Source: Escherichia phage vB_EcoP_PW8 | Length of the DNA stretch: 64,000 nt | Strand: one strand, 5' to 3' | Sequence record: PQ362703.1 | Part shown: positions 1,585 to 50,196 of the stretch, piece after piece | How positions within the stretch are numbered: the stretch's first letter is position 1 | Layout of the letters: the number at the start of each line of letters is the position of its first letter | Notes under the pieces: generated by a model | The model's database searches: none | Told to the model about the DNA's origin: nothing | Seen by the model: the letters and a program-made list of their open reading frames with translations, nothing else | Translations under genes and position numbers: made by a program

Positions 1585-1600
1585 CAGGAGGTATGCAATT

Positions 1601-1996: not shown

Positions 1997-2276
1997 AGGG
2001 GAATTCTTATACACAACAGACTTTACTTTAGAAGAAGTCATAGATAGCAATCCTCAGCATGTAATCCTGGTTCCTACCTTAGAGGATTATCATGAAGTAA
2101 GGGGTCAGCTCTTCTTATCAGGTAACGACCGTAAAGTTGTATGCATCATTCCTCCATCAGTGTATACCGATAGTAGTGCGTATGACGCTTTGCCTTTCAT
2201 GATGGTATCCGATAACTACCAATGGGATTGTAGGCATGAGGATGAGAAATACCATTACTACTATGTAAGGAAGTAA
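1962..2276 (+). CDS. small early protein, paralog family member 2
   Basis: Track ORF 1887..2276 trimmed to internal ATG (Met26) preceded by AAGGAAGG; motif VILVPTLEDYHEVRGQLFL. Confidence 0.5.
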   Translation: MKFILTAPSFVKGEFLYTTDFTLEEVIDSNPQHVILVPTLEDYHEVRGQLFLSGNDRKVVCIIPPSVYTDSSAYDALPFMMVSDNYQWDCRHEDEKYHYYYVRK

Positions 2277-2279
2277 GAT

Positions 2280-2603
2280 ATGCACCTGTATTGCCTGCTT
2301 AGTTTTGCCACTACATGTTATTTATCCCCATACACGCTGGATAATATTCTGGCAGGTAAGGGCAGTGTTACCACCATCCTGTATGAACCAAGTGAAGAAG
2401 CAGAAGAGTTCATTGGTTCCTGTATCATGTTAGGAATACCTATTACCTTGACTAAGATAAATACTTCCATTGTAGTACCAGAAGGTAAGCTAGTGTATAT
2501 CTTCTCTTCCCAAGAACCCATGGTAGTTACTACCCTAACTGGTAGACTTATTACCCTCTATCCTTCTACCTCATATTTATCTAGCGACGAGTGTGCCCCA
2601 TGA
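2280..2603 (+). CDS. small early protein, divergent paralog 3
   Basis: 107-aa ORF with AAGGAAG RBS; degenerate copy of the motif (TILYEPSEEAEEFIGSCIML). Confidence 0.5.
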   Translation: MHLYCLLSFATTCYLSPYTLDNILAGKGSVTTILYEPSEEAEEFIGSCIMLGIPITLTKINTSIVVPEGKLVYIFSSQEPMVVTTLTGRLITLYPSTSYLSSDECAP

Positions 2604-2938
2604 ATAGAGTACTGTATCTCCATCAGTATAAGGATGAAGTCTCTGTTTACTCCGAGAATATCAATGAAGCTATTGAGTGGTTACTACTACAAGACTGTCA
2701 TATGCTTATGCTATCAGGAGATCTAGCAGATAGTACCCGTGGTTCAATTCTTCTACTTAATAGCCCGGCTAAGTTAACCATCCTTAATCCGGGGGAATTC
2801 ATAAAGATACCTGCTGGTGAATCTGCATTCTTGTTCTTTGAACCAAGGATAGAAGAAGGGTTTGTCGGGCTTACTATAGATAGTAGACCTAATAAAGATT
2901 TTAAAAGAGTAAGGATTATATCCCATGAAACTTACTAA
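2600..2938 (+). CDS. small early protein, divergent paralog 4
   Basis: Track ORF 2591..2938 trimmed to ATG at 2600 (ATGA overlap with previous stop); weak copy of motif. Confidence 0.45.
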   Translation: MNRVLYLHQYKDEVSVYSENINEAIEWLLLQDCHMLMLSGDLADSTRGSILLLNSPAKLTILNPGEFIKIPAGESAFLFFEPRIEEGFVGLTIDSRPNKDFKRVRIISHETY

Positions 2939-3251
2939 GATAGGTTATGCTGGTGGACCTATTTCCACTACCCATACAACCTTACAAGACCTTGTGCCAG
3001 GTAGGCTCACTCCTATTATCCTAGTACCGGACGAACAAACACTGCACGAAGTTAAAGGATTAGCTTTATTACTAAACAAGGAGGTTATCGTAGAAGTCCT
3101 TGAACCAGGAAAAGAACTACCATGGTCCTCCTACATGTACTCCCCCTGGCATGTGAATGCGGATAAGTACACTCTTACCTTTGGTATCACAAATGAACTG
3201 CAAACCCCTCACTTGGTATATGCTTCCTCCTATTTATCTGCTTATAAGTAA
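2925..3251 (+). CDS. small early protein, paralog family member 5
   Basis: 108-aa ORF; motif IILVPDEQTLHEVKGLALL. Confidence 0.5.
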   Translation: MKLTKIGYAGGPISTTHTTLQDLVPGRLTPIILVPDEQTLHEVKGLALLLNKEVIVEVLEPGKELPWSSYMYSPWHVNADKYTLTFGITNELQTPHLVYASSYLSAYK

Positions 3252-3395
3252 GATAGCTATCATATTTTTGCATATGAAAAGTAGCATAGTTATGTATGGC
3301 TATAGTGCTACACCTGGGGCTACACCCTTACACTCAACCATCCCCCCCGGTATGTTGACGGTGTAGCCACTACCCTACCCCACCTTACACGTTAC

Positions 3396-3410
3396 ACATG
3401 CTCCGCATGT
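3396..3410 (+). promoter_or_regulatory. conserved hairpin ACATGC-TCC-GCATGT, candidate virion-RNAP early promoter
   Basis: 6-bp stem, 3-nt loop about 45 nt upstream of the 3453 gene; same GC-TCC-GC core as hairpins at 3885 and 7048. Confidence 0.35.
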
Positions 3411-3452
3411 TATGGACATGTCGTCCTATCATCAACTATTGGAGCTATCATC

Positions 3453-3776
3453 ATGACTACTCAAGCTACTGTACGTATGACTGCAGGAACTTTACTTGGT
3501 ACTGTTAACTCAGCTGCTACTACTGTTGCAGATACATTCAGCACTGCAACTAAAGCAGTAGGTATGCTTAATTCGTATGTTAGTACGATGGCAGAGAAAC
3601 AAGCCATTCGTACTAAATTAGAAATGCATACCTTTGTTAATAAACTGGCTGAAGAAACAGCTATGACCGAGACTCTGCGTAAGAAAAGTATTGAGGAATT
3701 CTGCAAGGATTCAGAGAACGCTCGTATCTATAACGCAGAATATTCAAAAGTAATCGACATCCTGACTAAAGACTAA
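3453..3776 (+). CDS. hypothetical early protein
   Basis: 107-aa ORF, GGAG RBS; flanked by promoter-like hairpin and strong terminator. Confidence 0.6.
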   Translation: MTTQATVRMTAGTLLGTVNSAATTVADTFSTATKAVGMLNSYVSTMAEKQAIRTKLEMHTFVNKLAEETAMTETLRKKSIEEFCKDSENARIYNAEYSKVIDILTKD

Positions 3777-3784
3777 GTCACCTA

Positions 3785-3810
3785 GGAGGCTCTTCGGAGT
3801 CTCCTTTTAT
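3785..3810 (+). terminator. rho-independent terminator (TTCG tetraloop)
   Basis: GGAGGCTC-TTCG-GAGTCTCC followed by TTTTAT. Confidence 0.65.
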
Positions 3811-3884
3811 AAACATTAGATAGATAGTCAAAAGTAGATAACTATCTACTTTAAGTTAACTAACTCGCACTATCTTTAAAAGAA

Positions 3885-3899
3885 AGACGCTCCGCGTCT
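3885..3899 (+). promoter_or_regulatory. conserved hairpin AGACGC-TCC-GCGTCT, candidate virion-RNAP early promoter
   Basis: 6-bp stem, 3-nt TCC loop directly upstream of the 3911/4010 gene. Confidence 0.35.
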
Positions 3900-4009
3900 A
3901 AAGGATAAGAATGAATCCACTTCTTATCGAAATCTTAAGTCTTTTCTTGGGTTTAGTCACCGACGGACAAACCCATAAATCAAAAAATCATTTATCTGGA
4001 GAGTACAAA

Positions 4010-4390
4010 ATGTCTATTCAAAAATTCACTTTCGGTCAATCTAACGCTGCTGCTTCTACTGCTAAAACTGATAAACCAAAAGCTCAGTTATGGCTGAACA
4101 TTGGTTATGTAGCTAATGAAGGCTCTGATGATGAGAAATTCATCTCTCTGCCTACTGGTATTCCACTGGATACTCAGGAACCGCTGCCTACTAATAGCAG
4201 CAATGCTGACTTCCGTGCTATGCGTTGTGCACAGAACGACTTGCTGGAACAGTTAATCGCATATGCTCAGAACCTGGAACCAGGTGAAGAGGGTATCATT
4301 AACCTGCAAGTTCAACTTCGTCGTGTGAAAGCAGAGGCTGCTGACATCCCAGCAGACGAGAATAAATATGCCCGTAAACTGACTTTCTAA
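4010..4390 (+). CDS. hypothetical early protein
   Basis: Track ORF 3911..4390; internal ATG at 4010 (Met34) has GGAGAG RBS, whereas the 3911 start sits on the hairpin; alternative start 3911. Confidence 0.55.
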
Positions 4391-4399
4391 TCAACTACT

Positions 4400-4427
4400 A
4401 GACTCCCTTCGGGGAGTCTTTTATTTT
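4400..4427 (+). terminator. rho-independent terminator (TTCG tetraloop)
   Basis: AGACTCCC-TTCG-GGGAGTCT perfect 8-bp stem followed by TTTTATTTTT. Confidence 0.7.
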
Positions 4428-4530
4428 TAACTATGCGAAAGGCTATTTCTACTTTTTGAGTATCTTTAGACGAAGGGTACTGAAACAGTAACCAGATAGA
4501 TATAGATTTATATTAGAAGAGGAATTAACC

Positions 4531-4719
4531 ATGTTAGATTTCATCACTTTCTGTGTAATCTTCTACTTTCTGGGTTGGAAGTTACGTCATAAATGGTTGC
4601 TTATTGCTAAGCTGCCATTCGTTACTATCGAGTGTCTCATTGCTAGTGTTAAACATAAGAAAGCAATGACTCAGTACTACAAGCAACAAGCAGAAGAGTT
4701 TGCAAAGAGGAACCAGTGA
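4531..4719 (+). CDS. small membrane protein
   Basis: 62-aa ORF, AGAGGA RBS, hydrophobic N-terminal segment. Confidence 0.5.
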   Translation: MLDFITFCVIFYFLGWKLRHKWLLIAKLPFVTIECLIASVKHKKAMTQYYKQQAEEFAKRNQ

Positions 4720-4898
4720 TATTCACTAACATAGAAGATGCCATTGAAGAATGTATCTTTCGTAGGTATCACACTGGTGTACAGAAACGACACTATGGTG
4801 TTGTGCAACTCAATGGTTATCAAATGGTTGTAAGAATTGTACGTAACAATAAACCTTTTAACTTTATGTGGAGTACTAAATCATGCGTAAATCATTAA
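4716..4898 (+). CDS. hypothetical protein
   Basis: 60-aa ORF, GTG start overlapping previous stop, AAGAGG RBS. Confidence 0.4.
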   Translation: MIFTNIEDAIEECIFRRYHTGVQKRHYGVVQLNGYQMVVRIVRNNKPFNFMWSTKSCVNH

Positions 4899-5011
4899 TC
4901 ATGGGAACCAAAGAAGATGTACAGAAGATGAAAGGGCGTCTGGCTGCTAAGAAACAGGCATCTGAACCAGTACGTAAGATTGTTACCTTCAACCATCCAT
5001 GTATCAAATAA
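4883..5011 (+). CDS. possible small basic protein (42 aa)
   Basis: ATG ORF below track cutoff, ends immediately before a strong terminator; not supported beyond ORF geometry. Confidence 0.25.
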   Translation: MRKSLIMGTKEDVQKMKGRLAAKKQASEPVRKIVTFNHPCIK

Positions 5012-5014
5012 CAA

Positions 5015-5047
5015 GGAGTCCTCCATTAGGAGGGCTTCTATTTTTTA
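5015..5047 (+). terminator. rho-independent terminator
   Basis: GGAGTCCTCC-ATTA-GGAGGGCTTC stem (two G.U pairs) followed by TATTTTTTATT. Confidence 0.6.
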
Positions 5048-5089
5048 TTCTTGAATAGTTAGATATGTATTTAAATAGGAGAAATAACC

Positions 5090-5407
5090 TTGAACGAAAT
5101 TGTTTGTATACTTCCACATTCAGCTAAGATAGCTGACCGGAATATACGTATCCACTTACCATTCCCACTAAGCAATCCATTCTCTCGTAATGAAAGAACC
5201 ACAGTAGAAGATATAGAGGTAGCTTATGAAGCTTACCTTCGTAATCGTCTTATTAGTGGTGACAAGTTAATTACAGCAGAGATGGAAAGGATTGCATCCT
5301 TTGTAACAGATAGTACAGGTAAGCCTGTAGGCCTAATAGGTACTGAATCTGATGTAAATGTTATTCGTAAAATACTACTGGAGGCACTAAGTGAACAACC
5401 TCAGTGA
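5090..5407 (+). CDS. hypothetical protein
   Basis: 105-aa ORF, TTG start with TAGGAG RBS. Confidence 0.5.
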   Translation: MNEIVCILPHSAKIADRNIRIHLPFPLSNPFSRNERTTVEDIEVAYEAYLRNRLISGDKLITAEMERIASFVTDSTGKPVGLIGTESDVNVIRKILLEALSEQPQ

Positions 5408-5624
5408 TGTAATTGTAGGTAATGAGATATTCGTTGACCGAAAAGGCTATGCAAGAATTAAACTAAAGGGTACTAACAGAACTATTGTTCGTAAGGTGTA
5501 CTCTAAACCTTTTAGCAATTTCTCTATTGATGAAGTACGCATTAATAACAAGATGTACTTCATAGATAGTAAAGTATCTGTATGCCATACAGATGGTAAA
5601 ACCTCTCTTGAATATACTTACTAA
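5391..5624 (+). CDS. hypothetical protein
   Basis: 77-aa ORF, GTG start with GGAGG RBS. Confidence 0.45.
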   Translation: MNNLSDVIVGNEIFVDRKGYARIKLKGTNRTIVRKVYSKPFSNFSIDEVRINNKMYFIDSKVSVCHTDGKTSLEYTY

Positions 5625-5636
5625 GGAGTAAGCAAA

Positions 5637-5858
5637 ATGCTGTTCAGCACTAATTATGGAATCTGCCCAATCTGTAAGAAAGGAAGAGGAGTTGCTAATC
5701 ATAAGAAGTGTAGTCGTATCCTACAGAAACAACGGAACCAGAAGGAATGGGATAAGATACTGGAAAATCAGCACAAAGATGAGTTCAAGGAGACAGCTAT
5801 TAAAGCATCTACTCAGCTTATTCGTCGTACTAACTTCATAGAAGGCTACCAGAAATGA
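5637..5858 (+). CDS. small protein with CxxC pair (possible Zn-ribbon)
   Basis: 73-aa ORF, TAAGGAG RBS; N-terminal CPICKK...C. Confidence 0.5.
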   Translation: MLFSTNYGICPICKKGRGVANHKKCSRILQKQRNQKEWDKILENQHKDEFKETAIKASTQLIRRTNFIEGYQK

Positions 5859-6109
5859 TTATTACGTATCCTACGGGCAAGAACGTGGAATATATGAAAC
5901 ATACTATTCAAGTGCCTCACTGGGTTAAGTATATAGCGTTATATACTCGACAGTATAAGAGTGCTAATACCTCATTAATAGGATTCTCTAAGAAGCCTAA
6001 ACTAACAGAAAACAATATCTGGGTATCCTCTGGGAGACAAGAAGAGATTGGTTTTTGCGATTTGAGTATTGTCGATAATAACATCTATGGGACATTGAGA
6101 AAGGTATGA
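5855..6109 (+). CDS. hypothetical protein
   Basis: 84-aa ORF, start overlaps previous stop. Confidence 0.5.
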   Translation: MIITYPTGKNVEYMKHTIQVPHWVKYIALYTRQYKSANTSLIGFSKKPKLTENNIWVSSGRQEEIGFCDLSIVDNNIYGTLRKV

Positions 6110-6426
6110 AAACTATTCTAGTAGTTCATGATTCTACATTTACTGATGTAGATAAGATGATGCGTAATATTGATTATGTATCTCAGACAAGCCAGGCATT
6201 CAACGAAGAGTTTACTCTCTACTGTAATGCTAAATCACCGCTGGTTCCTATTCTTAAGGAATCAGGTCTACCCTTCTCTACAGAGAACTTCCCGGAAGAA
6301 CCAGACTATGTAATCTCATTTATCTATGACTTACATGATGGTTCTGAAATAAGTGAATTAGCTATGAACCAGTGGCGTAGTAAACGTCCTGTGTTCGCAT
6401 TTCAGGTACTTAAACCAAAGGATTAA
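6106..6426 (+). CDS. hypothetical protein
   Basis: 106-aa ORF, translationally coupled. Confidence 0.5.
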   Translation: MKTILVVHDSTFTDVDKMMRNIDYVSQTSQAFNEEFTLYCNAKSPLVPILKESGLPFSTENFPEEPDYVISFIYDLHDGSEISELAMNQWRSKRPVFAFQVLKPKD

Positions 6427-6428
6427 AT

Positions 6429-6779
6429 ATGAAAGAAATCTTAGTATTCACTACCAATGTACTTGGGCAGCATACTAATGCTGCTGCCAAATTAGCTTAT
6501 AAGAAACACGGTGCTCGCTGGGGTATGGCCTATGGTCATTATGGTAATAGCTTTGCCATTCCAGTAAGAGATGGCAATGGTAACCGAATTAAAGAGGGAG
6601 CTATTTATGGCTTCATCGAAGGCTTCATTGCCTATTCATCTTCTAATCCACAGTGGGATTTTAAAGTCATGAGTAATGACTATCTGGACCCATACCAGTT
6701 CATCAATGTAACAGGCAATGTACTGTTACCAGAAGCATGGCGTAAACACTTAGGTGATGCTTACAACTACTGGAGTTAA
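6429..6779 (+). CDS. hypothetical protein
   Basis: 116-aa ORF. Confidence 0.5.
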   Translation: MKEILVFTTNVLGQHTNAAAKLAYKKHGARWGMAYGHYGNSFAIPVRDGNGNRIKEGAIYGFIEGFIAYSSSNPQWDFKVMSNDYLDPYQFINVTGNVLLPEAWRKHLGDAYNYWS

Positions 6780-6781
6780 TA

Positions 6782-7042
6782 ATGACATATGAAGAACTGT
6801 GGTCTGCTCAAGTCAGAGCCAGAGCACTCACACGACACGATATCTATTATGCATTACAAAATGAATTAAAGAGTCGTACTAAGCTGGGTCACATATCTGG
6901 TTTTATTAAGATACCTATGACTAGCCTAGTCTGGCCTTATCAAAAGAAAAGTAATGAGTTTAACAGTAATGGTCTGCATGTACGTATCGACTACCTTGGT
7001 CAAGAGAACAGTATTCGTATTACCTTTTGGACTAAGCGTTAG
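6782..7042 (+). CDS. hypothetical protein
   Basis: 86-aa ORF. Confidence 0.5.
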   Translation: MTYEELWSAQVRARALTRHDIYYALQNELKSRTKLGHISGFIKIPMTSLVWPYQKKSNEFNSNGLHVRIDYLGQENSIRITFWTKR

Positions 7043-7047
7043 GTAAC

Positions 7048-7062
7048 AGCTGCTCCGCAGCT
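7048..7062 (+). promoter_or_regulatory. conserved hairpin AGCTGC-TCC-GCAGCT, candidate virion-RNAP early promoter (or terminator)
   Basis: 6-bp stem, TCC loop, 34 nt upstream of the RNA polymerase II subunit gene; followed by TTTTGG. Confidence 0.35.
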
Positions 7063-7095
7063 TTTGGTTATTAATCACATTTAGGAGAATAAGCG

Positions 7096-7911
7096 ATGTA
7101 CTCATCTATTGAACATCAGAAGCAGCTCGAAAAACTATTCAATAAAAATCAGCTCTTGCCTCGCATGAGGAAGGAATTCGAGGACTCCGAAGAAATTGAC
7201 TTTAAGGCTTTTGCTGCCTATTTAGAAATTGATTATAAGCTGCTCATTGATGCAATGGTGCAGATTGCCCTACATAAACGTGCTGACATCCAAACTATGA
7301 TTGGCTCTCTCATGAGTCATTCAGATGATGCTCAGTATATCGCTGACTGTCTGTATAAGATGGCAGAGAATGACTGCTTCAACTATGACCCTACCATCGA
7401 CAAGTTCGGTGTTATTTATGAGATTAGTGAAGATGTACAGATGGAACTGGAAGCATTCCAGTACCCATTGCCTATCGTAAGTGCTCCTAAGCCTGTTAAG
7501 TGTAACCGTGATACTGGTTACTACGAAAGCAGAGGTAGCATCATCCTCAAGAAGAACCATCATGAGATGGATGTCTGTCTTGACCATATCAACCGTATGA
7601 ACAATCAACGTCTCTGCATTAACTGGGACGTTGCTAACTATGTAAAAGACTCCCGTCCTAACATGGATAAACCCAAAGAGGGTGAAACCCGTCAGGACTA
7701 CGAGAAGCGTGTTAAAGCCTTTGAGAAGTACAGCCGTACAGCTAAGGAAGTAATGGAGCTAGTGACCAAAGAAGGTAATAACTTCTCCTTGGCTCATCGT
7801 TACGATAAGAGAGGACGCACTTACTGTTCCGGATATCATATATCCTATCAAGGCACTTCCTATAACAAAGCTGTTATTGAATTTGCAGACAAAGAACTAG
7901 TAGAGGACTAA
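7096..7911 (+). CDS. phage RNA polymerase II small subunit (N4 gp15-like; N-terminal part of a T7-like single-subunit RNAP)
   Basis: 271 aa, matching the size of N4 RNAPII small subunit (established knowledge); sits upstream of the ORF carrying the T7-RNAP catalytic motifs. Confidence 0.55.
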   Translation: MYSSIEHQKQLEKLFNKNQLLPRMRKEFEDSEEIDFKAFAAYLEIDYKLLIDAMVQIALHKRADIQTMIGSLMSHSDDAQYIADCLYKMAENDCFNYDPTIDKFGVIYEISEDVQMELEAFQYPLPIVSAPKPVKCNRDTGYYESRGSIILKKNHHEMDVCLDHINRMNNQRLCINWDVANYVKDSRPNMDKPKEGETRQDYEKRVKAFEKYSRTAKEVMELVTKEGNNFSLAHRYDKRGRTYCSGYHISYQGTSYNKAVIEFADKELVED

Positions 7912-8417
7912 TGAAACCAACTCAAGCAGAGTTGATGGAACTAATCGACTATGGCCCAGTGAATGGAACATTTCATTGGACTCATAGTCCATTGGTGTAC
8001 ATCAACGTAAGAGGTAAGGAGACTGGCTTATCAGGCTCCAGAGGACATCGAAAGATTGTCATTAATAAACAGGAATACAAGGCTCATCACGTAGCCTGGT
8101 GTATCATGACTGGTTCATGGCCTGAACAGGTGGATCATAATGATACAAACCGGGCCAACAACCGTTGGAATAACCTACGTGAGGCAACTCATGCACAGAA
8201 CATGTGCAATAGAACCATGAACAAGAATAACACTTCTGGATTTAAAGGTGTGCGTATTCGTAATGGTAAATACTTAGCCCAAATTCAAGTCAAAGGCACC
8301 AAAATAGCATTAGGTTCATTCACTGATCCAGTGGATGCTGCTAAGGCTTATGATGCTGCCGCAATTAAATACTTTGGTGAGTTCGCCAAAACAAACAAAG
8401 AACTCAATAACTATTAA
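7911..8417 (+). CDS. free-standing HNH homing endonuclease with AP2-like DNA-binding domain
   Basis: HHVAW...VDHNDTNRANNRWNNLREATHAQN HNH motif plus C-terminal AP2-like block ...AAKAYDAAAIKYFGEFAKTN; paralog of the 29675 ORF; inserted between the two RNAP subunit genes. Confidence 0.75.
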   Translation: MKPTQAELMELIDYGPVNGTFHWTHSPLVYINVRGKETGLSGSRGHRKIVINKQEYKAHHVAWCIMTGSWPEQVDHNDTNRANNRWNNLREATHAQNMCNRTMNKNNTSGFKGVRIRNGKYLAQIQVKGTKIALGSFTDPVDAAKAYDAAAIKYFGEFAKTNKELNNY

Positions 8418-39773: not shown

Positions 39774-42700
39774 TTAGTTAGTAAGGTTGAGCCACGGGTT
39801 CAAGGTATGGGCACGTAAGCCTTGTCCGAAACCGAAGGAGTAACCAAGGTTACCCTGTGCAGCAATGCTGAAGATGTTGTCCTGAATAGGCAGACCAACA
39901 TTACCAAACATAGTAGGAGTTGGAGCCAGCATAGCCATAGCAGCATGTACTGGGTTATTACGAATCATGGACACTGCAACTTTTGCAGAACGAATCTTAA
40001 AGTTGTAGAACCACATCAGACCAACACTTTCCATATACCCACGGAATCGACCCGGCAGACGGTCGTAGTTAATAAACTCTTCCGTTACACGTCCCAGTGC
40101 TTCTTCACGAGTCTTACCTTTACGCTGAGTCAGTTCATCATAGATGATTGCTTTAGCAATAAAATCAGAGTACTCAACCGTCTTCTGGATACCCTGGAAG
40201 AGAGCAGTATCCTTAGTGATAAGTGCATAACGACCTGCATTACGTACAGACTTAGGTAACTTATCAGCCAGCTTTTCCATGTATTCGTGAAGTTTACCTT
40301 CAGTAATCAGGATGTCATCGCGACCAATACCAGCATCTGCAATTGAAGAGAACTCACCAGCTTCTAACAGAGGCCAGATACTCAAACGCTTATGGCTATC
40401 CGTAATGGACTGAATCTCTGCTTTCAGCTTACGAATCTGGTTCGGGTTAGTAGCTGCACGTAATTCTGCTTCTGCATCTACCTGACGCAGACGAGATTTC
40501 AGATACTGGTTAATCTCAGCAGTTTTCTGTGGAATGCTCTTAGCAATGTTCTTAACAGGTACACCACGAGCAACCATCTGGTAAAGGTTAGCCAGGAAGT
40601 TAACAGCAGGTACAACTACCGACTTAACTACAATCAGGGTCTTAGCTTCTTTAACTAAGTTCTGAACCAGATTCTCACCACCCATTACGTACTTATAAGC
40701 ACGGTTACCGAATACACCCAGCATAGCTTTCTTAAAGGTATCCAGTGTTTCTGGGGACCAACGAGAATTGCCAGACCAAGCATCACCAACAGAAGCTGCA
40801 CGGTAACCCAGTGCATCATTCAGCATGTCACGACGTACCCATAACTCACCCGGACCAAACAGACTTTCTGCTTTCTGACGAGTTTCACTGTTCATCAGCT
40901 TAAGAGCATCAGCAGTCACTGGGTCCAGTTTAGAACCAAGAAGGTTAACGTACTGGGACTTATTAGAGGCAGACATCTTAAGGTCGTTCTCATACATGCT
41001 ATGCAGGTTCTCAATCAGCATATCATTGAAACGTTGTGCCTTAGCTTCTTCCACCTGACGTCCACGCCATACACCAATTGCACGAGCAAGATGGTTCTCA
41101 CCCTCAATATGCTTCAGCATGTTAGGGTCAATGGATTGCTCATAAGCAACTACATTACCATTGGCATCATATACAGGCAGCAGTGGTTCATTACCACGTT
41201 CACCTCGAGCCAGTGCTTTAGTGATACGGTCTACGGAAGGCTTGTCAGTAATACGACCAGCTACCATGGTCCCCATCGTAAAGCCTGTGCCGAGGTCTAC
41301 ACCACCAGCAGTATTACGGACGTTCTGTAGGATACCTTGTGAGAATGGGGCCTGTGCCTGTACCGGTGCAAAGTAGTAACTACGTGCTGGGCCACGGTTA
41401 GCAGAACTACCCTGATAAGTACCCAGGCGTACATAGGATTTCTCAATCAAATCAGCAAACTGACTATCTTCAGCAACAATCAGGTTAACACCTTGTTTAG
41501 TCTCACTAGGGATATACCCTTTGTACTGGTTCAAGGTTGCACGGCTATCAGACTTGGCTTTAGCCATTTCATCCTTACGCTGACCAACCAGGTAAGAGGT
41601 AGCAAAGTCCATGCCTTCAATTTCAGTCTGAGCCAGTGAAGATAGCATCTCACGGTCAGTCTTACCCATTGCTTCCAGTGCATACAGGGTAATCAGTTTA
41701 TCCAGTTGAGCTACATCTACAACAGAACGTGTAGTCTTACGTTCACCCAGCAATCGAGAAATTGCTGTAGCATTACGCAGCAGGTTATTACCGACTGTAC
41801 CGTTAATCATGTACTGAGCCAGTTGCTTAGATTTACGACTAATCAGGGGCCAGTTACGTCCTGCTTGCTTCTGCAAATCTGCTTCCAGCTTATTCACTTC
41901 ACGATCAACAATCTTCTGGTCAGTCAGTAGGTCACGAATTTCACCTAAAGACATAGTGTCACGTAGAACGGCTAGGTCAGTTTTACCCATACCGGTATGC
42001 ATTGCTTTCCACTCTTCATTAGTCAGTCTACGACTGAACTTAGATGCGATAGCGGTAGGCAAATGCTCACGGAACTGCTGACGGTCAGCTTGTACCTGTG
42101 CGCGTACTGCCTTAATCAAATCGTATACAGAAGCATTGCTCTTAGTACGACCAACTATGTCATTAACCAGGTCGTGGAAAGGTTGCCATACCTTACCCTG
42201 GTTCATTGCAGCCATAACACCCTCGGCTACGATTGAACCATTCTTCTCTGTAGCAATAGCAGCTACCAGTTGTGCAGCATGAGCAGCACCTTTAACCAAT
42301 GGGTTCTTGGTATTAGCTGCAACTTCACGAGCACCTTCTAAAGCACGGGTAGACAATACATCAATAGAATCCACCAGATACTGATTAGCACGGTCAATAG
42401 CATTACCGGTAGGGGTAGCAACAGAATCATAGAAGGACTCTGCATTAAGACTGGTCTGCATAATTGTCTGAGCTAATGCATCCATACCTTCCTGTACGTT
42501 GGTAGCTTTAGTGTCACCTGCTACACGAGCATTCAGACTAGCCATTGCAGCAGTACCGATGTTAGTCAGCATTGCGTCAACAGTATTGCCTGATTTCTTA
42601 TCTGCTTTCATAACAGGAATTTCAGCCAGTACCTTACGTACCTCTTCACTTACCATTGCCAGACCAACAAAGGTAGGCAGTAAGGAAGAACGACCTTGTG

Positions 42701-45700
42701 CATCAAACTCAATGTTGTTAGCACCCATGATGGTATCGAACTTCTGCTGTGCATAGTAACGGTCAGCAGGGTTAGTACTATCCGGGTTAGCCATGAATGA
42801 TTCAACAGTCAGGTTCTTAGTAACATGCGTGTAGTATTCCTGTGCACGAGCCATAGCAGCAGGGTTAACAGCAGCCTCGGTAGCCAGTGCAGCAACAATA
42901 TTGGTAAAGAGACGCTGTTCCTGCATATTCATGGTGAAGCCATGAGCCTGAACATCACGGGTTACTTTAGTTGCATTTACTACTGCATCAGAGAACTTAC
43001 CTTTACGAATTACTTGCTGTACTGGTTCTGAACCAATGTAGTCAGTAATCAGCTTATCAAATGTTTTCCCTAACTCTTCCAGACGGGTATTGTCACCATA
43101 TGCCTTGTTATGGAACAGGGTAGTGTCTTTGGCTACAGCAGCAGTAGGAGCCTGTCCACGCATTACTACAGCAGAGTTAAACAGTAAGCCTGAGAACATA
43201 TCATCTGCATTAGCAGGAGCTTTCTTACGTCCAAATACCAGACGTTTGATTGCTTCATATACAGCCTGAACCATAGTTTTAAGTGCAGTGGTTTTCTTCT
43301 GCTTATTAATAAGTTCACGGTTAGTTAAACCCCAAGCCATGTACTCATTCAGAGCAGCAGCTTTAGCCATCGCCGGTTCAATGAAGCCATTAGACAGGTG
43401 TCCATTAATGGTATTCAGTGCATCTGCATATGCTTCACGTACTGCCGGAGATTCATCCTTAACATCCAGAGCACGGAACTGGTTCATCAAATCTTCAATG
43501 TTCTGAACTGCTTCATTAGGAGTACCTTCATAGTGAGCCAGTACAGATTCAAAAGTAGAAGCGTGTACCAATTCATGAACCAGAGTTTCTAAGGAAGGAG
43601 TAACTAAGTAGATGGTCTTATCTTCAAAGTTAGTCCAGCCGTATGCATTACCTGCTTCAGCAGCTTCAATATCTTCTGGTGCTGGACGAGCAATGTTCTT
43701 CTCAATAGCGTAGGCATCCAGTTGAGAAGGCGTACCGTAAACAACCTTATAGTCTTTAGCAGCAAGGGATTTCTGTATCTCTTTCAATACTGCTTGCTGT
43801 TCAGGAGACATCTCTTTAGCTAGTTTAGCAATGGCAGTATTAGACAGCAGACGTACACCAGACTTCAGTACATGACCAACCAATTCTATTGCTGGTACTT
43901 CTTTCACTGGTTCTGCTTTAGCAGCACGTACTGCATCACGACGCTTGTTTAATTCAGCATCAAACAGTTCGTTCAGCTTAGCTACTTGCTGGTCTACGGT
44001 AAGCCCTTCCAGAGAGATTTTACCGTTGTTCACGTAAGGAGCACCTACGGCAGCCATCTGGTCAACAGTGACCTGTACCTGGTCCATTACCTTGTGACGA
44101 ATATCTACACCCAGAGCAATGTTACGCAGATTACGTTCAATCTGTTCAGCACCAACACGTAACAGGTCATCAGTAGCACCCTCACGCTGGTCATATTCCA
44201 GAGCAGACTTAGCAATAGCCTGTTTAGTTTCATCAGACAGTTTACTGAAGTCTACGTTCTTCATGAACTTAGCGAAGGAGTCATAAACATTCTTGATAGG
44301 GTTTCCTTGCCAAGAAGTATATACAGCCTCATTAGCTTTACGACTTGCATCAGTGATGTCATTGATACCAATGTTCATACCGTCAAAGATTTTCAGGGTA
44401 TTCTTCGGAGCACCCTTCATAGTAGAAAGAGTCTGCATCATCATGCCATCACCAGTACCGATGGTCATAAATGGAATACCTGCAACACCTGCCTGTGAAG
44501 GAGCATAGATGCTCATTGGCACACGCATACGATCATCTAAGTTGGTAGCCAATACTTGGTTAGCAACATCAGTATTCTCACTACCAGCAATGTAGAAAGT
44601 CTGTGAACCAGTCTCAATCATTGGAGCCAGTGGAGCTAAGCTATTCTGGATTTCATTCAGTTCTTTCTGTGTTAAGAAATCACCTTTCTTCCATGTTGGG
44701 TCTTTTTCTTTTTCTGCCAGCTTAGCCTGTACTGCTTGTTGAAACATATCCTGCAATACCAGTGATTGAATCTGAGTAGCCTTCTGCAAATTCTCAGTAG
44801 AGTACATCAGACCTTCGCCAACAGTATTTCGGATACCAGTACGCATTGGCTCAACGAATAAGTGAAGCATGTTCTCTTGTAAGTTCTTAAGAGCATTACC
44901 AGATACGGTAAACTTCTGGGGATCTAGCTTACCAGTCAAAGCACCATCTACTTGTTGAATAGATAACTCACCTTTACGCATAACTGGAACATTACCAGTC
45001 AGTGCTTCCATAGAAGTAAGGAAAGTATCCAGCATAGCCTGAGCAGCAGCCTCAGATGCAGCCTCCTTACCAAACATTGCCATAGCTGGGGAAATGCTAG
45101 GGTCAGCAGCACGGGCTTGCAGAACGTCACTGAAGCGTTCGTAGATGGTATCAGTAATTGCACTTACCATTTTGCCTGCAATACCACGAGCACCGGAACC
45201 ATAGATGGTAATGGTCAGTGGGTTTTTAGCTATACCACGTTTCAGGTCCAGAGTACCATCTTCATTCAGATTAAAGTCTTTAATGAACAGGTCCATTAAC
45301 TTCTGGAGATGCTTCATCTGGTTCGTAACAGGAACGTTGTTACGGTAAGTATTACGTAGCTCATTCAGTGCCTGTTGCAGACCATTAGTGGATGCTTCAT
45401 ACAAGTCAACACTATCCTCATGCGAATGATGCTCATTCATAGTCTTGCCAGCTTTACCGAAGAACAAGCCACCCTTAGCAGTATTCTTAATCCAGTCTGG
45501 GGTGAACTTACCACCAGTCATTAATACCATTGCGTTGATTGGACCGTTGGTTACACCATCAGCTTCAACGTACAGCGGAGTATTAAAATTGGTACGGTCA
45601 TCACTGTTAAGATAACGGGCATATTCCATAAGAGCCATGAGAGCTACGAATGATTTATCACTACCCAGAGAAGTCTTCAGAATATCCACTGCATTGGTTG

Positions 45701-48700
45701 GTAAGTGTCCAGACTTATCAAACTCAACCATCATATCAACAGCAGGTTTCAGTTTGCCTTCCAGGGCTTTAGTCAGCTCATCTGACATAACTTCACGAGA
45801 CATTTTATGAACTTTGATGCCTAATGCTTGAGCCAGACCTAACTGGAAGTCAGAGAAGGTTTGGCTGTTTTCATTACTCAAGTCGATAGTAGAGAAGGTT
45901 GGTAGGATTGCTTCACGTACCAGCTTGCTGGACTGTGGATTGTTCTTACCAAGCATCTGCATACGACCTACACGGGTCATGTTGTAACCATAGTGAATAG
46001 GTGTATCCAGTCCATTCTCTTGTTCCTTAATCTGATTGATTACACCAAACAAGGAATCATATGCCATAGAAACGGATAGGTTTTTACCTTCCAGAGATTT
46101 AGCAGTATTCACATTCAGCAATTCTGGGTTAAGAGCACCAGCACCCATCAGTTCAAGAATGTTGTCACGACCCAATGCCTCATAGAAATTAACCATCGGC
46201 ATATGTACACGGAACTCAGTAGCCTGTTCAGCTTTAAGAGCAGCTTTCTGTTCCGGGGTATTGCGGACAGCCGGGTTACGTAACTGAGTTTGAGCCACAG
46301 AAGGAATATCATCACCCAGATACAGTTTCTCTTCTGGTTCTAAAAGGACAGCTTCCTCAATAGCAGTGGGGAATTTATTAATGGCATCATTATCATCCAG
46401 CTTCTCAATGGTATACAGACCAATAGTCTTATTAGATTCTGGGTCAATCTCAGATACATCCAGCATGGACTCTTTAACTTCACCCATCTCAATAAGGGAA
46501 GACAGAATCTCTGTAGCCATTGCCATTGGGATACCCTTGGTATAGCCCAGTGGTGCATTAGGATTACGATTCAAACCCCAATAGGATTCAATCTTTTGAG
46601 CCAGTGAGTTAGTAGCCTCAACCAGAGTCTGAGCATTCTCGAAGTCAGCCAGAATACCTTCTGGTAACAGAGATGCTTCTACTCCAGTAATAGCAGCTAC
46701 GTCTTTCATATCTTTAACAGCAGCATTCTGTGTAGCAGTTAGTCGCCATTGCAAACCAGCAAGTACAGCAGTCTCTAGCAACTGGTCATTGAACTTAAAG
46801 GTGTCACCATCTTTCTCTACGATGTTAAGTAATTTACCACCTACCCAACGGTTAGCCTCAGTTCCTTCTGCAAAACGTTTACCAACATTCTTGTTAGCAA
46901 GGAACTTAGCCAGACGGTCAGACAGTGTAGTCTTCAGAGTTTCACCAAAAGCAAACAAATCCTGGTAACGCTTAATCACATCACCTGTAAGAGCGTTATT
47001 TTCTTTTTGAGTAAATGCTTCAAAACGAGCAGCAGAAGATAATGCTTTCTTAACATCAGTCAAAGGAGATTCAGAACCAATGGTACGGGACTTAGGTTCC
47101 TCTGGCAGAGAAAATGCTTTAAGGAACTGGTTCGGTGTTTTGTCATTGTTATAGACATGGAACACTGCTTCCATTTCTGTTTTAGTTTCAGCTATTTCCT
47201 GAGTGTTATCCTCATTAGTGAGGGTAACATCCTGTTTTTCAGACTGGTTCTCAGGTTCTTTTACAGCCTGTGGTTTAGACTCTTTAATAGTAGGTTCTGT
47301 TTTAACAGCTTCACTAACAGAGGGTTTAGTCTGTACAGTAGGGGTAACTGGTTCCTGTTTTGTAACAGGAGTATCATCAACCTGATTCACTGGTTCATTA
47401 GTCTGTTGGGATTGAGCAGCGTCAAGATTGCCCTGACGGAACTCTTTAACTACCTGAGCAGCAGGTTTGTTCAGACGTGAATCCAATGGGATAACTTTCA
47501 CATGAGAAACATTAAGCTCCGGGTAAGCCGTAGCAAGTGCGTTAGCAATATCAGCTACGGTCTTGGCTTCCAGTCCTACTTGCTGGGCAAACTTAACCGA
47601 CTTGGTATCATACGGATTGACACCGAGGCCAGTACGACTACGTACCCATTCACGCGAGGAAGTAAGAGCCTGATAATGGACAGACTTATTCTTATCCGCA
47701 TTCCCCGAAATCAGATGCTCATTCAACGCTCCGACCTTATTCTGCATGTGCTGGGCGAACTTCATAAAGTCGTCGAGATAAGCGGAAGCCAAATCGAAGT
47801 TACCAGAGTTGTACGCAGAACGAATGCGTTTAGCATGTTGCAACGCAGAGTACTGGCCTTCATTAGAACGAGATTCGTCGGTTTTAATTTGTTTACTAAC
47901 AATGTCTTGAGGACGTAAGCCTAGTTCTTCTGCTTTAGCGTCAAACTCTCGTGCTCCTTGCAATAAAGCAGCAGCAGATTGCAGGGCAGCACGCTGACGA
48001 TTCCCAAGTGTAATCTTACCTTCACTTGCATGTTTCAGAACCATGTTCACTGAATCTGCATCCAGTACTTCTGGAGACATGTCAGCAGCCATGGCAATGC
48101 TGTTTGCCTGAGCTTGATTAGCTTCTTCAGTAGCTTTCAGTTTACCTGCTTCAGCCTGTTCCTGAATCATGGAATGAATAGCACGGAATGCACGGAGTAC
48201 CTTCGGTGTATTCTGAACGTTAGCCATCAGACCGGAGAACTGGTCAACAATATTAGCAGCAGGAGAACCTTGTTCCAGATTAGCTAATGCACCAGGGTCA
48301 CGGTTAATGAAGCTATCCATAGACATGATGTTGTCATACATCTGGATTGCAGCTTCCATTTGAACGTTAGGGTCTTCAGCAGTATTAACCAGGTCAGCCA
48401 TCTTCTGAATAGCTTCAACACGGTTAGTGGAACCAGAAACAGCTTCACGGATTGCTGGACTAGCTTGCTCCAGTTCTACTGGGTCAAACTTCATTACCTG
48501 AGTTAAATCAGCAGCGTACTGGGTAGCAGCAGCTTTCTCTTCTGGAGTAATATCCATTGCATCTACTGCTTCCTGTACAGTTGCTTGTGCTTGTTCTGCT
48601 TGAGCAGTAGCTTCCTGTGCAGCAGCATTAACTGTAGCGTCTGATACAGGAGATGCTTGTTCATTACGCTTAGCAACTTCTTCACCACGCTGAACCAGAA

Positions 48701-50132
48701 TGTTAGTAATAGGGGAGGCAGCTTTTGCTAATACATTACCCGCCAGAGAAGCACCAGCCAGGGTAGTACGTACAGCAGGACCAACGGCAGCACCAGCAGC
48801 CTTAACAGTTGCACCAGGAGCTTGAGCAACTCCAGCAGAACCAAAGCCATACAATGCACCAAGACCAGTTTGTTCACCCACACCTTTAAGCAAATCACGC
48901 TTAGCATCTACATTACCCTGAATTGCCTTGTTCTGTGCAAACTGACTTGTACCAGACTGGATACCTTCTTCCACAGTTTCACGGAGCAAGTTAGAACCAG
49001 CACCAGCCAGAGAACCTACCTTAAGTGGGTTAAGTTCAAACTTAGATACCAGTGGGCCAGTAAGAGCAGCAACCGGAGCAGTTAGGCCAGCAGCAGTGAT
49101 ACCCGTTTCAGATGCAGTCTGACGACGAGCTTCTTCAGGAGTTAAGCCGTCTTTAATGTGTTGTTGGTATACAGGAGATTTAGCAGCCAGTTCACTGAAT
49201 GGCATTTCCATAATTTCATTAGCAGTCTGTTGGTATGCACCACCAGCTTCCATACCACCAATTGCTATAGCAGGTGCAGCAATACGCCCGGTAGCTAATG
49301 CAGTACGTGCAGGACGCGAACCTAACTCAGCAGCTAAGGTAATACCCTTAACAGCTTTATCACCACCTACCATTACTTTACCGAGTGCAGATACACCACG
49401 GATTAATGGACCACCAGTAAACAGAGAACCAACACCTTCAGCAATACCATCTGTAGCAGCCATGTCATTGGATAAGGTGTTAGCAACAGAATCATAAGCA
49501 TCACGACCAATACGAGACAGAGAAGCAACGAGTTCACTTTCCCCTTTAGCAATATCCTGCTTATAGAGTTTCTCATTTTCCTGTGCAGAGATTACATTCT
49601 GGTTCTGTACTACATTACGACGAGCATTCAATGCATCAGACTGTAGGTTGTGTACACCTTTATTCAACCAGTCAAGACTGGAAGCAATGGATGCCCCGGC
49701 ATTATCATTGACCAAGCCTGTGCCAAGAGCAGCAATGCCCCCAAGGGTATTAGCAACACCAAGACCAACACCAGAAAGGGTATCGCCAAATGCTTCTGCG
49801 TTAGTACGTTGTTTAGATAAGTCCTGGCGTACAGCATCAGCAGCATTAGCTCGACTATTAAGAATCTGTAGACCTTGCTCATTACCATACTTATTAATGA
49901 TTTCTAATGGGGAGGCCTGAGTGAAATCTGCCTGAAGTGAACCTGGTTCAAATGCACCAGCACCTAAGTTACCTGCACGACCTGCCTGTAATTGGTAAGC
50001 GTTCTGTGGGGTTAATTGGAAAGGGTTTTGCCCTTGTTCAGCTTGCTTCCGGGAGGTTGCAGTAGAGACATCGACTTGCTTAGCATTAGTGATGCTGTCT
50101 GCGAAACCTGCCAGACGGTCAAATGTTGACAT
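39774..50132 (-). CDS. giant virion-encapsidated RNA polymerase (N4 gp50-like vRNAP)
   Basis: Uninterrupted 3452-aa ORF (track 3458 aa from TTG; ATG at 50132 has AGGAAA RBS); a ~3500-aa virion RNAP is the hallmark of N4-like phages; located at the end of the structural gene block. Confidence 0.85.
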   Translation of the reverse strand: MSTFDRLAGFADSITNAKQVDVSTATSRKQAEQGQNPFQLTPQNAYQLQAGRAGNLGAGAFEPGSLQADFTQASPLEIINKYGNEQGLQILNSRANAADAVRQDLSKQRTNAEAFGDTLSGVGLGVANTLGGIAALGTGLVNDNAGASIASSLDWLNKGVHNLQSDALNARRNVVQNQNVISAQENEKLYKQDIAKGESELVASLSRIGRDAYDSVANTLSNDMAATDGIAEGVGSLFTGGPLIRGVSALGKVMVGGDKAVKGITLAAELGSRPARTALATGRIAAPAIAIGGMEAGGAYQQTANEIMEMPFSELAAKSPVYQQHIKDGLTPEEARRQTASETGITAAGLTAPVAALTGPLVSKFELNPLKVGSLAGAGSNLLRETVEEGIQSGTSQFAQNKAIQGNVDAKRDLLKGVGEQTGLGALYGFGSAGVAQAPGATVKAAGAAVGPAVRTTLAGASLAGNVLAKAASPITNILVQRGEEVAKRNEQASPVSDATVNAAAQEATAQAEQAQATVQEAVDAMDITPEEKAAATQYAADLTQVMKFDPVELEQASPAIREAVSGSTNRVEAIQKMADLVNTAEDPNVQMEAAIQMYDNIMSMDSFINRDPGALANLEQGSPAANIVDQFSGLMANVQNTPKVLRAFRAIHSMIQEQAEAGKLKATEEANQAQANSIAMAADMSPEVLDADSVNMVLKHASEGKITLGNRQRAALQSAAALLQGAREFDAKAEELGLRPQDIVSKQIKTDESRSNEGQYSALQHAKRIRSAYNSGNFDLASAYLDDFMKFAQHMQNKVGALNEHLISGNADKNKSVHYQALTSSREWVRSRTGLGVNPYDTKSVKFAQQVGLEAKTVADIANALATAYPELNVSHVKVIPLDSRLNKPAAQVVKEFRQGNLDAAQSQQTNEPVNQVDDTPVTKQEPVTPTVQTKPSVSEAVKTEPTIKESKPQAVKEPENQSEKQDVTLTNEDNTQEIAETKTEMEAVFHVYNNDKTPNQFLKAFSLPEEPKSRTIGSESPLTDVKKALSSAARFEAFTQKENNALTGDVIKRYQDLFAFGETLKTTLSDRLAKFLANKNVGKRFAEGTEANRWVGGKLLNIVEKDGDTFKFNDQLLETAVLAGLQWRLTATQNAAVKDMKDVAAITGVEASLLPEGILADFENAQTLVEATNSLAQKIESYWGLNRNPNAPLGYTKGIPMAMATEILSSLIEMGEVKESMLDVSEIDPESNKTIGLYTIEKLDDNDAINKFPTAIEEAVLLEPEEKLYLGDDIPSVAQTQLRNPAVRNTPEQKAALKAEQATEFRVHMPMVNFYEALGRDNILELMGAGALNPELLNVNTAKSLEGKNLSVSMAYDSLFGVINQIKEQENGLDTPIHYGYNMTRVGRMQMLGKNNPQSSKLVREAILPTFSTIDLSNENSQTFSDFQLGLAQALGIKVHKMSREVMSDELTKALEGKLKPAVDMMVEFDKSGHLPTNAVDILKTSLGSDKSFVALMALMEYARYLNSDDRTNFNTPLYVEADGVTNGPINAMVLMTGGKFTPDWIKNTAKGGLFFGKAGKTMNEHHSHEDSVDLYEASTNGLQQALNELRNTYRNNVPVTNQMKHLQKLMDLFIKDFNLNEDGTLDLKRGIAKNPLTITIYGSGARGIAGKMVSAITDTIYERFSDVLQARAADPSISPAMAMFGKEAASEAAAQAMLDTFLTSMEALTGNVPVMRKGELSIQQVDGALTGKLDPQKFTVSGNALKNLQENMLHLFVEPMRTGIRNTVGEGLMYSTENLQKATQIQSLVLQDMFQQAVQAKLAEKEKDPTWKKGDFLTQKELNEIQNSLAPLAPMIETGSQTFYIAGSENTDVANQVLATNLDDRMRVPMSIYAPSQAGVAGIPFMTIGTGDGMMMQTLSTMKGAPKNTLKIFDGMNIGINDITDASRKANEAVYTSWQGNPIKNVYDSFAKFMKNVDFSKLSDETKQAIAKSALEYDQREGATDDLLRVGAEQIERNLRNIALGVDIRHKVMDQVQVTVDQMAAVGAPYVNNGKISLEGLTVDQQVAKLNELFDAELNKRRDAVRAAKAEPVKEVPAIELVGHVLKSGVRLLSNTAIAKLAKEMSPEQQAVLKEIQKSLAAKDYKVVYGTPSQLDAYAIEKNIARPAPEDIEAAEAGNAYGWTNFEDKTIYLVTPSLETLVHELVHASTFESVLAHYEGTPNEAVQNIEDLMNQFRALDVKDESPAVREAYADALNTINGHLSNGFIEPAMAKAAALNEYMAWGLTNRELINKQKKTTALKTMVQAVYEAIKRLVFGRKKAPANADDMFSGLLFNSAVVMRGQAPTAAVAKDTTLFHNKAYGDNTRLEELGKTFDKLITDYIGSEPVQQVIRKGKFSDAVVNATKVTRDVQAHGFTMNMQEQRLFTNIVAALATEAAVNPAAMARAQEYYTHVTKNLTVESFMANPDSTNPADRYYAQQKFDTIMGANNIEFDAQGRSSLLPTFVGLAMVSEEVRKVLAEIPVMKADKKSGNTVDAMLTNIGTAAMASLNARVAGDTKATNVQEGMDALAQTIMQTSLNAESFYDSVATPTGNAIDRANQYLVDSIDVLSTRALEGAREVAANTKNPLVKGAAHAAQLVAAIATEKNGSIVAEGVMAAMNQGKVWQPFHDLVNDIVGRTKSNASVYDLIKAVRAQVQADRQQFREHLPTAIASKFSRRLTNEEWKAMHTGMGKTDLAVLRDTMSLGEIRDLLTDQKIVDREVNKLEADLQKQAGRNWPLISRKSKQLAQYMINGTVGNNLLRNATAISRLLGERKTTRSVVDVAQLDKLITLYALEAMGKTDREMLSSLAQTEIEGMDFATSYLVGQRKDEMAKAKSDSRATLNQYKGYIPSETKQGVNLIVAEDSQFADLIEKSYVRLGTYQGSSANRGPARSYYFAPVQAQAPFSQGILQNVRNTAGGVDLGTGFTMGTMVAGRITDKPSVDRITKALARGERGNEPLLPVYDANGNVVAYEQSIDPNMLKHIEGENHLARAIGVWRGRQVEEAKAQRFNDMLIENLHSMYENDLKMSASNKSQYVNLLGSKLDPVTADALKLMNSETRQKAESLFGPGELWVRRDMLNDALGYRAASVGDAWSGNSRWSPETLDTFKKAMLGVFGNRAYKYVMGGENLVQNLVKEAKTLIVVKSVVVPAVNFLANLYQMVARGVPVKNIAKSIPQKTAEINQYLKSRLRQVDAEAELRAATNPNQIRKLKAEIQSITDSHKRLSIWPLLEAGEFSSIADAGIGRDDILITEGKLHEYMEKLADKLPKSVRNAGRYALITKDTALFQGIQKTVEYSDFIAKAIIYDELTQRKGKTREEALGRVTEEFINYDRLPGRFRGYMESVGLMWFYNFKIRSAKVAVSMIRNNPVHAAMAMLAPTPTMFGNVGLPIQDNIFSIAAQGNLGYSFGFGQGLRAHTLNPWLNLTN

Positions 50133-50196
50133 AGCATGTTTCCTGTTCAAACTTATATCGTATATAGGAAGCTTACTCTACAGTAAGCCAGTGTAA

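Follow-up and report, generated by a model that had tools for sequence, protein, structure and literature searches.

Three hairpins upstream of the early genes

The DNA analysed here, a stretch of 64,000 nucleotides from Escherichia phage vB_EcoP_PW8 (sequence record PQ362703.1; called the window below, with positions counted from its first letter), carries three small hairpins, P1, P2 and P3, in the region of the early genes. The original prediction, made from the DNA letters and a list of their open reading frames (ORFs), described hairpins with 6-bp stems and TCC loops at 3396–3410, 3885–3899 and 7048–7062 and proposed them as candidate promoters of a virion RNA polymerase (vRNAP) similar to that of phage N4. 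The sequence reads exactly in this way at all three sites:

3396..3415, + strand: P1, predicted early promoter; stem-loop ACATGC-TCC-GCATGT at 3396–3410, then TATGG
3885..3904, + strand: P2, predicted early promoter; stem-loop AGACGC-TCC-GCGTCT at 3885–3899, then AAAGG
7048..7067, + strand: P3, predicted early promoter; stem-loop AGCTGC-TCC-GCAGCT at 7048–7062, then TTTGG

Each hairpin consists of a perfect 6-bp stem in which two G:C pairs close a three-nucleotide (3-nt) TCC loop. Three A/T bases and a GG come next in every case, so that the common loop, the closing pairs, the A/T tract and the GG are all as described. The loop centres, C3403 in P1, C3892 in P2 and C7055 in P3, correspond to position -11 of the predicted promoters, and the coding-strand C residues at 3406, 3895 and 7058 to position -8. 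The predicted +1/+2 nucleotides are G3414/G3415 (P1), G3903/G3904 (P2) and G7066/G7067 (P3). All three hairpins are intergenic. The + strand ORFs downstream of them begin at 3453, 3911 and 7096 (the second also has an in-frame ATG at 4010 as an alternative start) and are homologues of N4 gp1, gp2 and gp15, which bears out their placement upstream of early genes; P3 directly precedes the gene of the RNAPII small subunit.

The heptamer GCTCCGC, which comprises the loop and its closing pairs, is not enriched (three copies in the window versus 2.37 expected). Since the bare count is not significant, the significance test was run on the whole hairpin. All three heptamer copies of the window are located on the + strand, each within a perfect 6-bp hairpin. 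Such a hairpin arose in only 39 of 3000 mononucleotide shuffles of the window (mean 0.013 per shuffle, maximum 2), and no shuffle contained three. There are 40 perfect hairpins with a 6-bp stem and a 3-nt loop in the window, among which P1, P2 and P3 alone have this loop and these closing pairs in common. A relaxed scan of the whole window on both strands, which asked for a G-N-A loop on the template strand, a C:G pair closing it and 4 bp or more of stem, produced no additional candidate that had both the -8 base and GG at +1/+2. These results confirm the observation and exclude a chance origin. When 35-nt segments of the template strand are folded, the hairpin is the minimum-free-energy or the centroid structure for P1, P2 and P3.

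Correspondence with the early promoters of phage N4

The vRNAP initiation sites P1, P2 and P3 of N4 lie in the leftmost 10% of its genome (PMC4496689). In the N4 sequence (EF056009), the heptamer GCTCCGC closely precedes gp2 (at 562) and RNAP1/gp15 (at 4551), and its variant GCTTCGC precedes gp1 (at 93). Flank alignments put the window hairpins exactly at the N4 P1, P2 and P3 sites:

P1: CATGC-TCC-GCATG in the window, GTTGC-TTC-GCAAC in N4 (N4 90–102); two compensatory stem changes, loop TCC versus TTC
P2: stem GACGC/GCGTC in the window, GAAGC/GCTTC in N4 (AGAAGC-TCC-GCTTCT, N4 556–570); one compensatory change
P3: AGCTGCTCCGCAGCTTTTGGT plus the next base (22 nt), identical to N4 P3 at N4 4546–4567

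The compensatory change in P2 concerns the pair -15/-7, which is C:G in the window and A:T in N4. The P1 hairpin is embedded in flanks that are conserved with N4 on both sides, TTACAC upstream and TATGGACATG downstream.

The N4 promoter is built of a GC-rich heptamer centred at -11 with inverted repeats on both flanks, and on the template strand N4 vRNAP recognises A or G at -11, G at both -10 and -8, and C at +1 (PMC4496689). The variable stem bases matter for pairing only, and a G:C loop-closing pair together with the 5' G and 3' A of the loop is needed for extrusion and stability of the hairpin (PMC4496689). The template strand of all three window hairpins reads 5'-GC-GGA-GC-3', which places G at -8, -10 and -11 and A at -12, with a G:C pair closing the loop, and the template base at +1, 11 nt past the loop centre, is C (coding-strand G) in each case. 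The sequence-level features that characterise an N4-type vRNAP promoter are present at these sites: the stem and loop, the heptamer, the -8 and +1 bases, the position in the genome, a cognate vRNAP, orthology and the maintained pairing of the stem.

Conservation in related phages

The comparison covered 13 related early regions, namely those of N4, G7C, KP8, HK2, ECBP1, pSb-1, IME11, four further IMG/VR contigs, RiverRider and Axy04. A locus search with the gp15 protein gave 8 close relatives only, and the more distant schitoviruses were added from tblastn hits. The motif search in N4-like relatives that had been suggested as a check found GCTCCGC hairpins in these early regions, most of them with GG at +1/+2. 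Within the 13 relatives, 38 of 40 heptamers are located in hairpins with covarying stems, and 37 of these 38 have GG at +1/+2. Together with the window, 41 of 43 heptamers lie on the + (coding) strand in hairpins of at least 5 bp, and GG, which was not a selection criterion, follows at +1/+2 in 40 of the 41. The sole exception, at position 509 of G7C, has lost the GG start and, judged from its sequence, may be a decayed copy. The coding strand carries TCC, and never GGA, in all 41 hairpin copies.

Within conserved flanks, the orthologous P1 stems read CATGC, GTTGC, GATGC or GACGC, and the complete P1 hairpin is identical in ECBP1, IME11, pSb-1 and HK2. The P3 stem of G7C, GGTGC/GCACC, represents a compensatory change. 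The number of promoters per genome is three or four, an extra hairpin being present in KP8 and in the relatives L003 and L008. The count of three, which the original prediction compared with the three N4 promoters, holds for this genome, and some relatives have four.

Position relative to the genome end

The window is ~90–94% identical to genomes of the genus Gamaleyavirus (G7C-like, N4-like coliphages ECBP1, EC1-UPM, PD205, HK2 and Bp4), and the phage collection contains no record above ~94% identity over long stretches. This ceiling makes the phage a further member of Gamaleyavirus. Many records of linear relatives begin at the equivalent of window position ~3310–3313, and position 1 of N4 aligns near the same point, so the window is a circular permutation in which the physical left end of the genome falls near 3311. 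By this alignment, positions 1 to ~3310 are the right genome end, and the left end is ~100 nt from P1. The right-end part (1–3310) contains small rightward ORFs beside the terminase region, as in HK2. All three hairpins lie at most 3.8 kb from the inferred left end and are directed rightwards. In the relative Mimir124, the annotated terminal repeat comprises the first 403 bp, and a repeat of this size would include P1 within its ~400 bp. By analogy, P1 is probably located inside a terminal repeat and hence present twice in the virion.

The ~90 nt between the inferred left end and P1 (3320–3390) contain a C7 tract at 3342–3348 and a CCCTACCCCACC motif at 3373–3384. Both are kept in N4, G7C and KP8 and, further afield, in RiverRider (a Xanthomonas phage) and Axy04 (an Achromobacter phage). 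This region may be a candidate genome-end, packaging or injection signal. The end of the middle region carries tRNA genes at 37464–37535, 38323–38395 and 38404–38478. ARAGORN calls tRNA-Ala(cgc) and tRNA-Ile(aat), one of them at 38404–38478, and Rfam detects two tRNAs, at 38404–38478 (in common with ARAGORN) and at 38323–38395.

The virion RNA polymerase and the early genes

The window encodes a virion RNA polymerase and homologues of N4 gp1, gp2, gp15 and gp16:

39774..50150, - strand: virion RNA polymerase (vRNAP), ORF of 3458 amino acids
3453..3776, + strand: gp1 homologue, 64% identity to N4 gp1 over 108 columns; first gene after P1
3911..4390, + strand: gp2 homologue, 66% identity to N4 gp2, the N-terminal 33 residues included; predicted to be transcribed from P2
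7096..7911, + strand: gp15 homologue, RNAPII small subunit, 65% identity to N4 gp15; first gene after P3
8435..9679, + strand: gp16 homologue, RNAPII large (catalytic) subunit, 68% identity to N4 gp16; Pfam RNA_pol PF00940, E = 1.3e-14

The vRNAP ORF matches the Pfam families N4_RNAP_helical, vRNAP_dom, vRNAP_dom_2 and vRNAP_plug, all four specific to the polymerase of the N4 virion, with E-values of 1e-26 to 1e-100, and the solved structures of N4 vRNAP with E = 0. Compared with N4 gp50, the whole protein is 68% identical and the polymerase domain 72%. In the N4 complex, K114 and R119 contact -10G/-11G, W129 stacks on -11, and D901 and R904 contact -9/-10 and -8 (PMC4496689). All five residues are kept in the window protein, in a local context identical to that of N4, and the catalytic D559 and D951 are conserved as well. 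The true vRNAP start is probably an ATG six codons into the listed ORF. It is this polymerase that, by prediction, reads the three hairpins.

N4 gp1 is a cofactor of middle transcription and N4 gp2 a cofactor of RNAPII; the gp2 homologue is annotated as 'RNAP1 subunit A' in relatives. With its predicted start at G3903, the P2 transcript would have a leader of just 8 nt ahead of the gp2 start codon (3911), and this leader has no clear Shine-Dalgarno sequence. A strong Shine-Dalgarno sequence (GGAGAG) is located ahead of the in-frame gp2 ATG at 4010. Because the 33 N-terminal residues of gp2 are kept with N4, both gp2 starts, 3911 and 4010, may be used.

Between the two RNAPII subunit genes lies an HNH/AP2-like ORF of 168 amino acids (7911–8417), which N4 does not have. 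Its position matches that of the G7C HNH endonuclease ST15.1, and it is probably a homing endonuclease insertion. Sites resembling sigma-70 promoters are strongly depleted in the segment 3000–8000 (3 versus 13.9 +/- 4.3 expected from shuffles), a scarcity that fits a region not meant for the host polymerase.

Probable early promoters of the virion RNA polymerase

The sequence features of the hairpins, their orthology with the N4 sites and agreement with the N4 recognition rules, their conservation, the covariation of their stems and the presence of a vRNAP gene with the promoter-contact residues together bear out the original proposal and argue that the hairpins are the early promoters P1–P3 of a G7C-like phage, recognised by the injected virion RNA polymerase. 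We assign a probability of about 0.93 to this reading. Extrusion of the hairpins, their dependence on SSB and gyrase and the actual start sites are carried over from N4, in which the early promoters require host gyrase, for supercoil-driven extrusion, as well as E. coli SSB (PMC4496689); for SSB and gyrase, we infer the same dependence here from the common host genus and the identical heptamer.

All three promoters carry GCGGAGC as their template heptamer, which belongs, with N = G, to the class of d(GCGNAGC) mini-hairpins. In this class the GNA loop contains a sheared G:A pair, and the melting temperature of the isolated 7-mer with N = G is 73 C (PMC13037366). In a mechanism modelled on N4, the leftmost few kilobases would enter the cell first, and host gyrase would introduce negative supercoils, under which each inverted repeat would extrude as a cruciform. 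The template arm, 5'-GC-GGA-GC-3', would fold into the unusually stable mini-hairpin with its sheared G:A pair; host SSB would melt the GC-TCC-GC arm and leave the template hairpin intact, and membership in the mini-hairpin class would explain why only the template arm survives SSB. The vRNAP would then bind to this hairpin, recognising the loop bases -11G and -10G and the stem base -8G, and RNA synthesis would begin with GTP opposite the template C at +1, 11 nt past the loop centre, i.e. at G3414, G3903 and G7066. From these transcripts, gp1 and gp2 would be expressed along with gp15 and gp16, the subunits of RNAPII, which would run middle transcription.

Several points weigh against this assignment. 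The start sites are predictions for this phage. Nearest-neighbour DNA folding recovers the template hairpins with only modest stability, at energies between -4.7 and -6.0 kcal/mol and z-scores between -1.4 and -2.6, which is not decisive taken by itself; nearest-neighbour models have been reported to miss the stability of GNA mini-hairpins (PMC13037366), and the GCGGAGC class would explain the modest energies. Among 33 distinct copies of the hairpin, the pairs -16/-6 and -15/-7 show four and three Watson-Crick types, respectively, and zero unpaired cells, a covariation count that is partly circular in that the copies were chosen for a stem of at least 5 bp, which guarantees five of the seven pairs. 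We rely instead on the flank-anchored alignments of orthologous sites and on the unselected GG at +1/+2. In Pseudomonas phage LUZ7, transcription starts 13–14 nt from the hairpin centre versus 11 nt here (PMC9163698), so the spacing is not universal in the family, and GG at 11–12 nt is invariant in this subfamily. Finally, a crude pattern for intrinsic terminators also matches P3 (+ strand) and P2 (- strand).

Alternative explanations

The last point is the core of a different proposal, according to which the hairpins are intrinsic terminators, or RNA processing or stability elements, that close the upstream units. A consensus scan marked 7048–7062 followed by TTTTGGTTATT as terminator-like on the + strand and 3899–3885 as terminator-like on the - strand, and every hairpin sits just 3' of an ORF. 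An intrinsic terminator, however, combines a GC-rich hairpin with a U-run, and a T-run on the coding strand is found at P3 only, P1 being followed by TATGG and P2 by AAAGG. A terminator would need none of what unites the three sites, namely the sequence of loop and heptamer, the -8 base and a GG at constant spacing, and P1 lies ~100 nt from the physical left end with nothing upstream to terminate. Furthermore, gp1 and gp2 are followed by separate and much stronger terminator-like hairpins:

3785–3808: terminator-like hairpin after gp1, C-TTCG-G loop and T-run
4400–4419: terminator-like hairpin after gp2, C-TTCG-G loop and T-run
9687–9717: terminator-like hairpin after gp16, C-TTCG-G loop and T-run

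The stems of those after gp1 and gp2 are 8–9 bp long, and their counterparts are annotated as terminators in phage SP5M; the hairpin at 3785–3808 is conserved with N4 (~494–516). Early/middle transcription probably terminates at these C-TTCG-G hairpins, which are separate elements from the promoter hairpins, and a terminator or processing role for P1–P3 as a set is very improbable. Still less credible is the proposal that a dimeric protein of the phage or the host binds the sites as double-stranded, palindromic operators, or that they are palindromes that arose by chance and have no role of their own. They are near-perfect 15-bp palindromes in intergenic DNA, and palindromes of the 6-bp/3-nt type are common, as the 40 examples in the window attest, but none of the 3000 shuffles contained three with this loop and closing pairs. 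The stem bases outside the heptamer vary freely yet stay complementary, as expected if a structure, and not a fixed double-stranded sequence, is read. A symmetric operator would need neither the strict strand asymmetry, with TCC on the coding strand of every copy, nor the GG downstream.

A third proposal is compatible with the promoter assignment and assigns P3 a dual function, in which the RNA copy of the P3 hairpin also attenuates read-through from P1 and P2. With its stem of 6–7 bp followed by UUUU, this RNA would set the ratio of the upstream early genes to the RNAPII genes. P3 does fit the terminator pattern, and the T-run TTTTGG is common to the P3 sites of N4, ECBP1, pSb-1 and IME11. 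The stem is short, however, and the orthologous P3 sites of other relatives have TAAGG or TTAGG; the lack of conservation of the T-run indicates that a terminator role is not under consistent selection. We consider both the attenuation and its proposed effect on the gene ratio unlikely.

Hairpins and a possible exchange of early gene cassettes

P2 differs in type among the relatives. In KP8, L003 and the PhAPEC5-like L008, a hairpin with an AGACGC, AAGACGC or AGAAGC stem precedes a small extra ORF between gp1 and gp2, and a second hairpin, with a GGCTGC or AGCTGC stem, then precedes gp2. Hairpins of this extra type are positioned as follows:

KP8 (L011): 962–983
L003: 1090
L008: 154
G7C (L012): 509

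In the window, as in HK2, L006 and L009, an AGACGC-type hairpin is instead fused directly to gp2 with the unusually short 8-nt leader, and the window P2 has the stem and the spacer of the relatives' extra promoter type. The arrangement suggests that recombination at or near the heptamer removed the extra ORF along with the ancestral P2 here, or added them in the other phages. That the hairpin promoters double as module junctions for the exchange of early gene cassettes is a doubtful reading of these sequence comparisons. Were it to hold generally, the early region of N4-like phages would owe its mosaic structure to recombination breakpoints at vRNAP promoters. The resemblance of the window P2, fused to gp2, to the cassette-type promoter of relatives is the only mildly new lead.

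Comparison with known promoter systems

The feature described here is already known in kind, and its sequences are already in public records of relatives. The hairpin-promoter mechanism was worked out in N4 decades ago. The finding raises no new question, the motif being annotated already in close relatives, and its value lies mainly in annotation, as it fixes three early transcription units with predicted starts at G3414, G3903 and G7066. A literature search on Gamaleyavirus and EC1-UPM promoters found, in the collection that it covered, no explicit description of promoters of the G7C group; the 2012 G7C genome paper may mention them.

An annotated counterpart is found in Klebsiella phage KP8, where promoters P1–P4 are annotated as early (NC_048700) and listed as putative (ACGTTGCTCCGCAACCTATGGA and three others; PMC6950046 Table 1). 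The KP8 and window sites have in common the GCTCCGC core, the inverted repeats, a (T/A)TGG start region and the location upstream of the gp1, gp2 and RNAPII small-subunit homologues. KP8 has four promoters versus three here, the extra one being located ahead of the small ORF inserted between gp1 and gp2.

More distant members of the family carry hairpins of related design with other sequences. The Litunavirus CMS1 carries the hairpin AGCGTAC-TCC-GTACGCT, and Vibrio phage VCO139 has C-T(T/C)C-G hairpins. In Salmonella phage UTK0002, at least six coding-strand C-TTC-G hairpins are found within 34–5874, mostly with GG a few bases on, which suggests a variant vRNAP promoter code in Ithacavirus. 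The early regions of Erwinia phage Frozen and Ruegeria phage V13 contain no hairpin with GC-NNN-GC closure or a TCC/TTC loop, so their promoters must differ. In LUZ7, early start sites were mapped by ONT-cappable-seq downstream of similar hairpins, which are vRNAP-dependent; their stems comprise 4 bp or more around a conserved 3-nt loop, and transcription starts with G (PMC9163698). LUZ7 differs in that it has nine early start sites and in its stem and closing sequences (PMC9163698).

Outside this family, the d(GCGNAGC) mini-hairpin is a motif of physical chemistry and not a functional family; in the window promoters it is set in a longer stem as a protein recognition site. T7-type promoters are read by a polymerase of the same fold family, whose specificity loop and intercalating hairpin read the positions -17 to +1 (PMC4496689). 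T7 promoters are read as a double strand, whereas N4-type promoters are read as an extruded single-stranded hairpin.

The strongest resemblance is to N4 itself. The promoters of the two phages occupy the same sites relative to gp1, gp2 and gp15 and have the same orientation near the left end, and they are built alike, of a 3-nt loop in a GC-NNN-GC heptamer centred at -11, a stem of 5–7 bp, a three-base A/T spacer and a GG start. The N4 promoters have been mapped experimentally; those of the window are predicted from sequence. The template loop of P1 is GGA here versus GAA in N4, both of which are allowed by the A or G at -11; the P2 spacer is AAA here versus TTT in N4, and the leader between P2 and gp2 is 8 nt here versus 10 nt in N4. 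The N4 promoter code, a GCGGAGC template mini-hairpin with GG at +1/+2, is unchanged across the Enquatrovirinae and extends to schitoviruses of Xanthomonas and Achromobacter.

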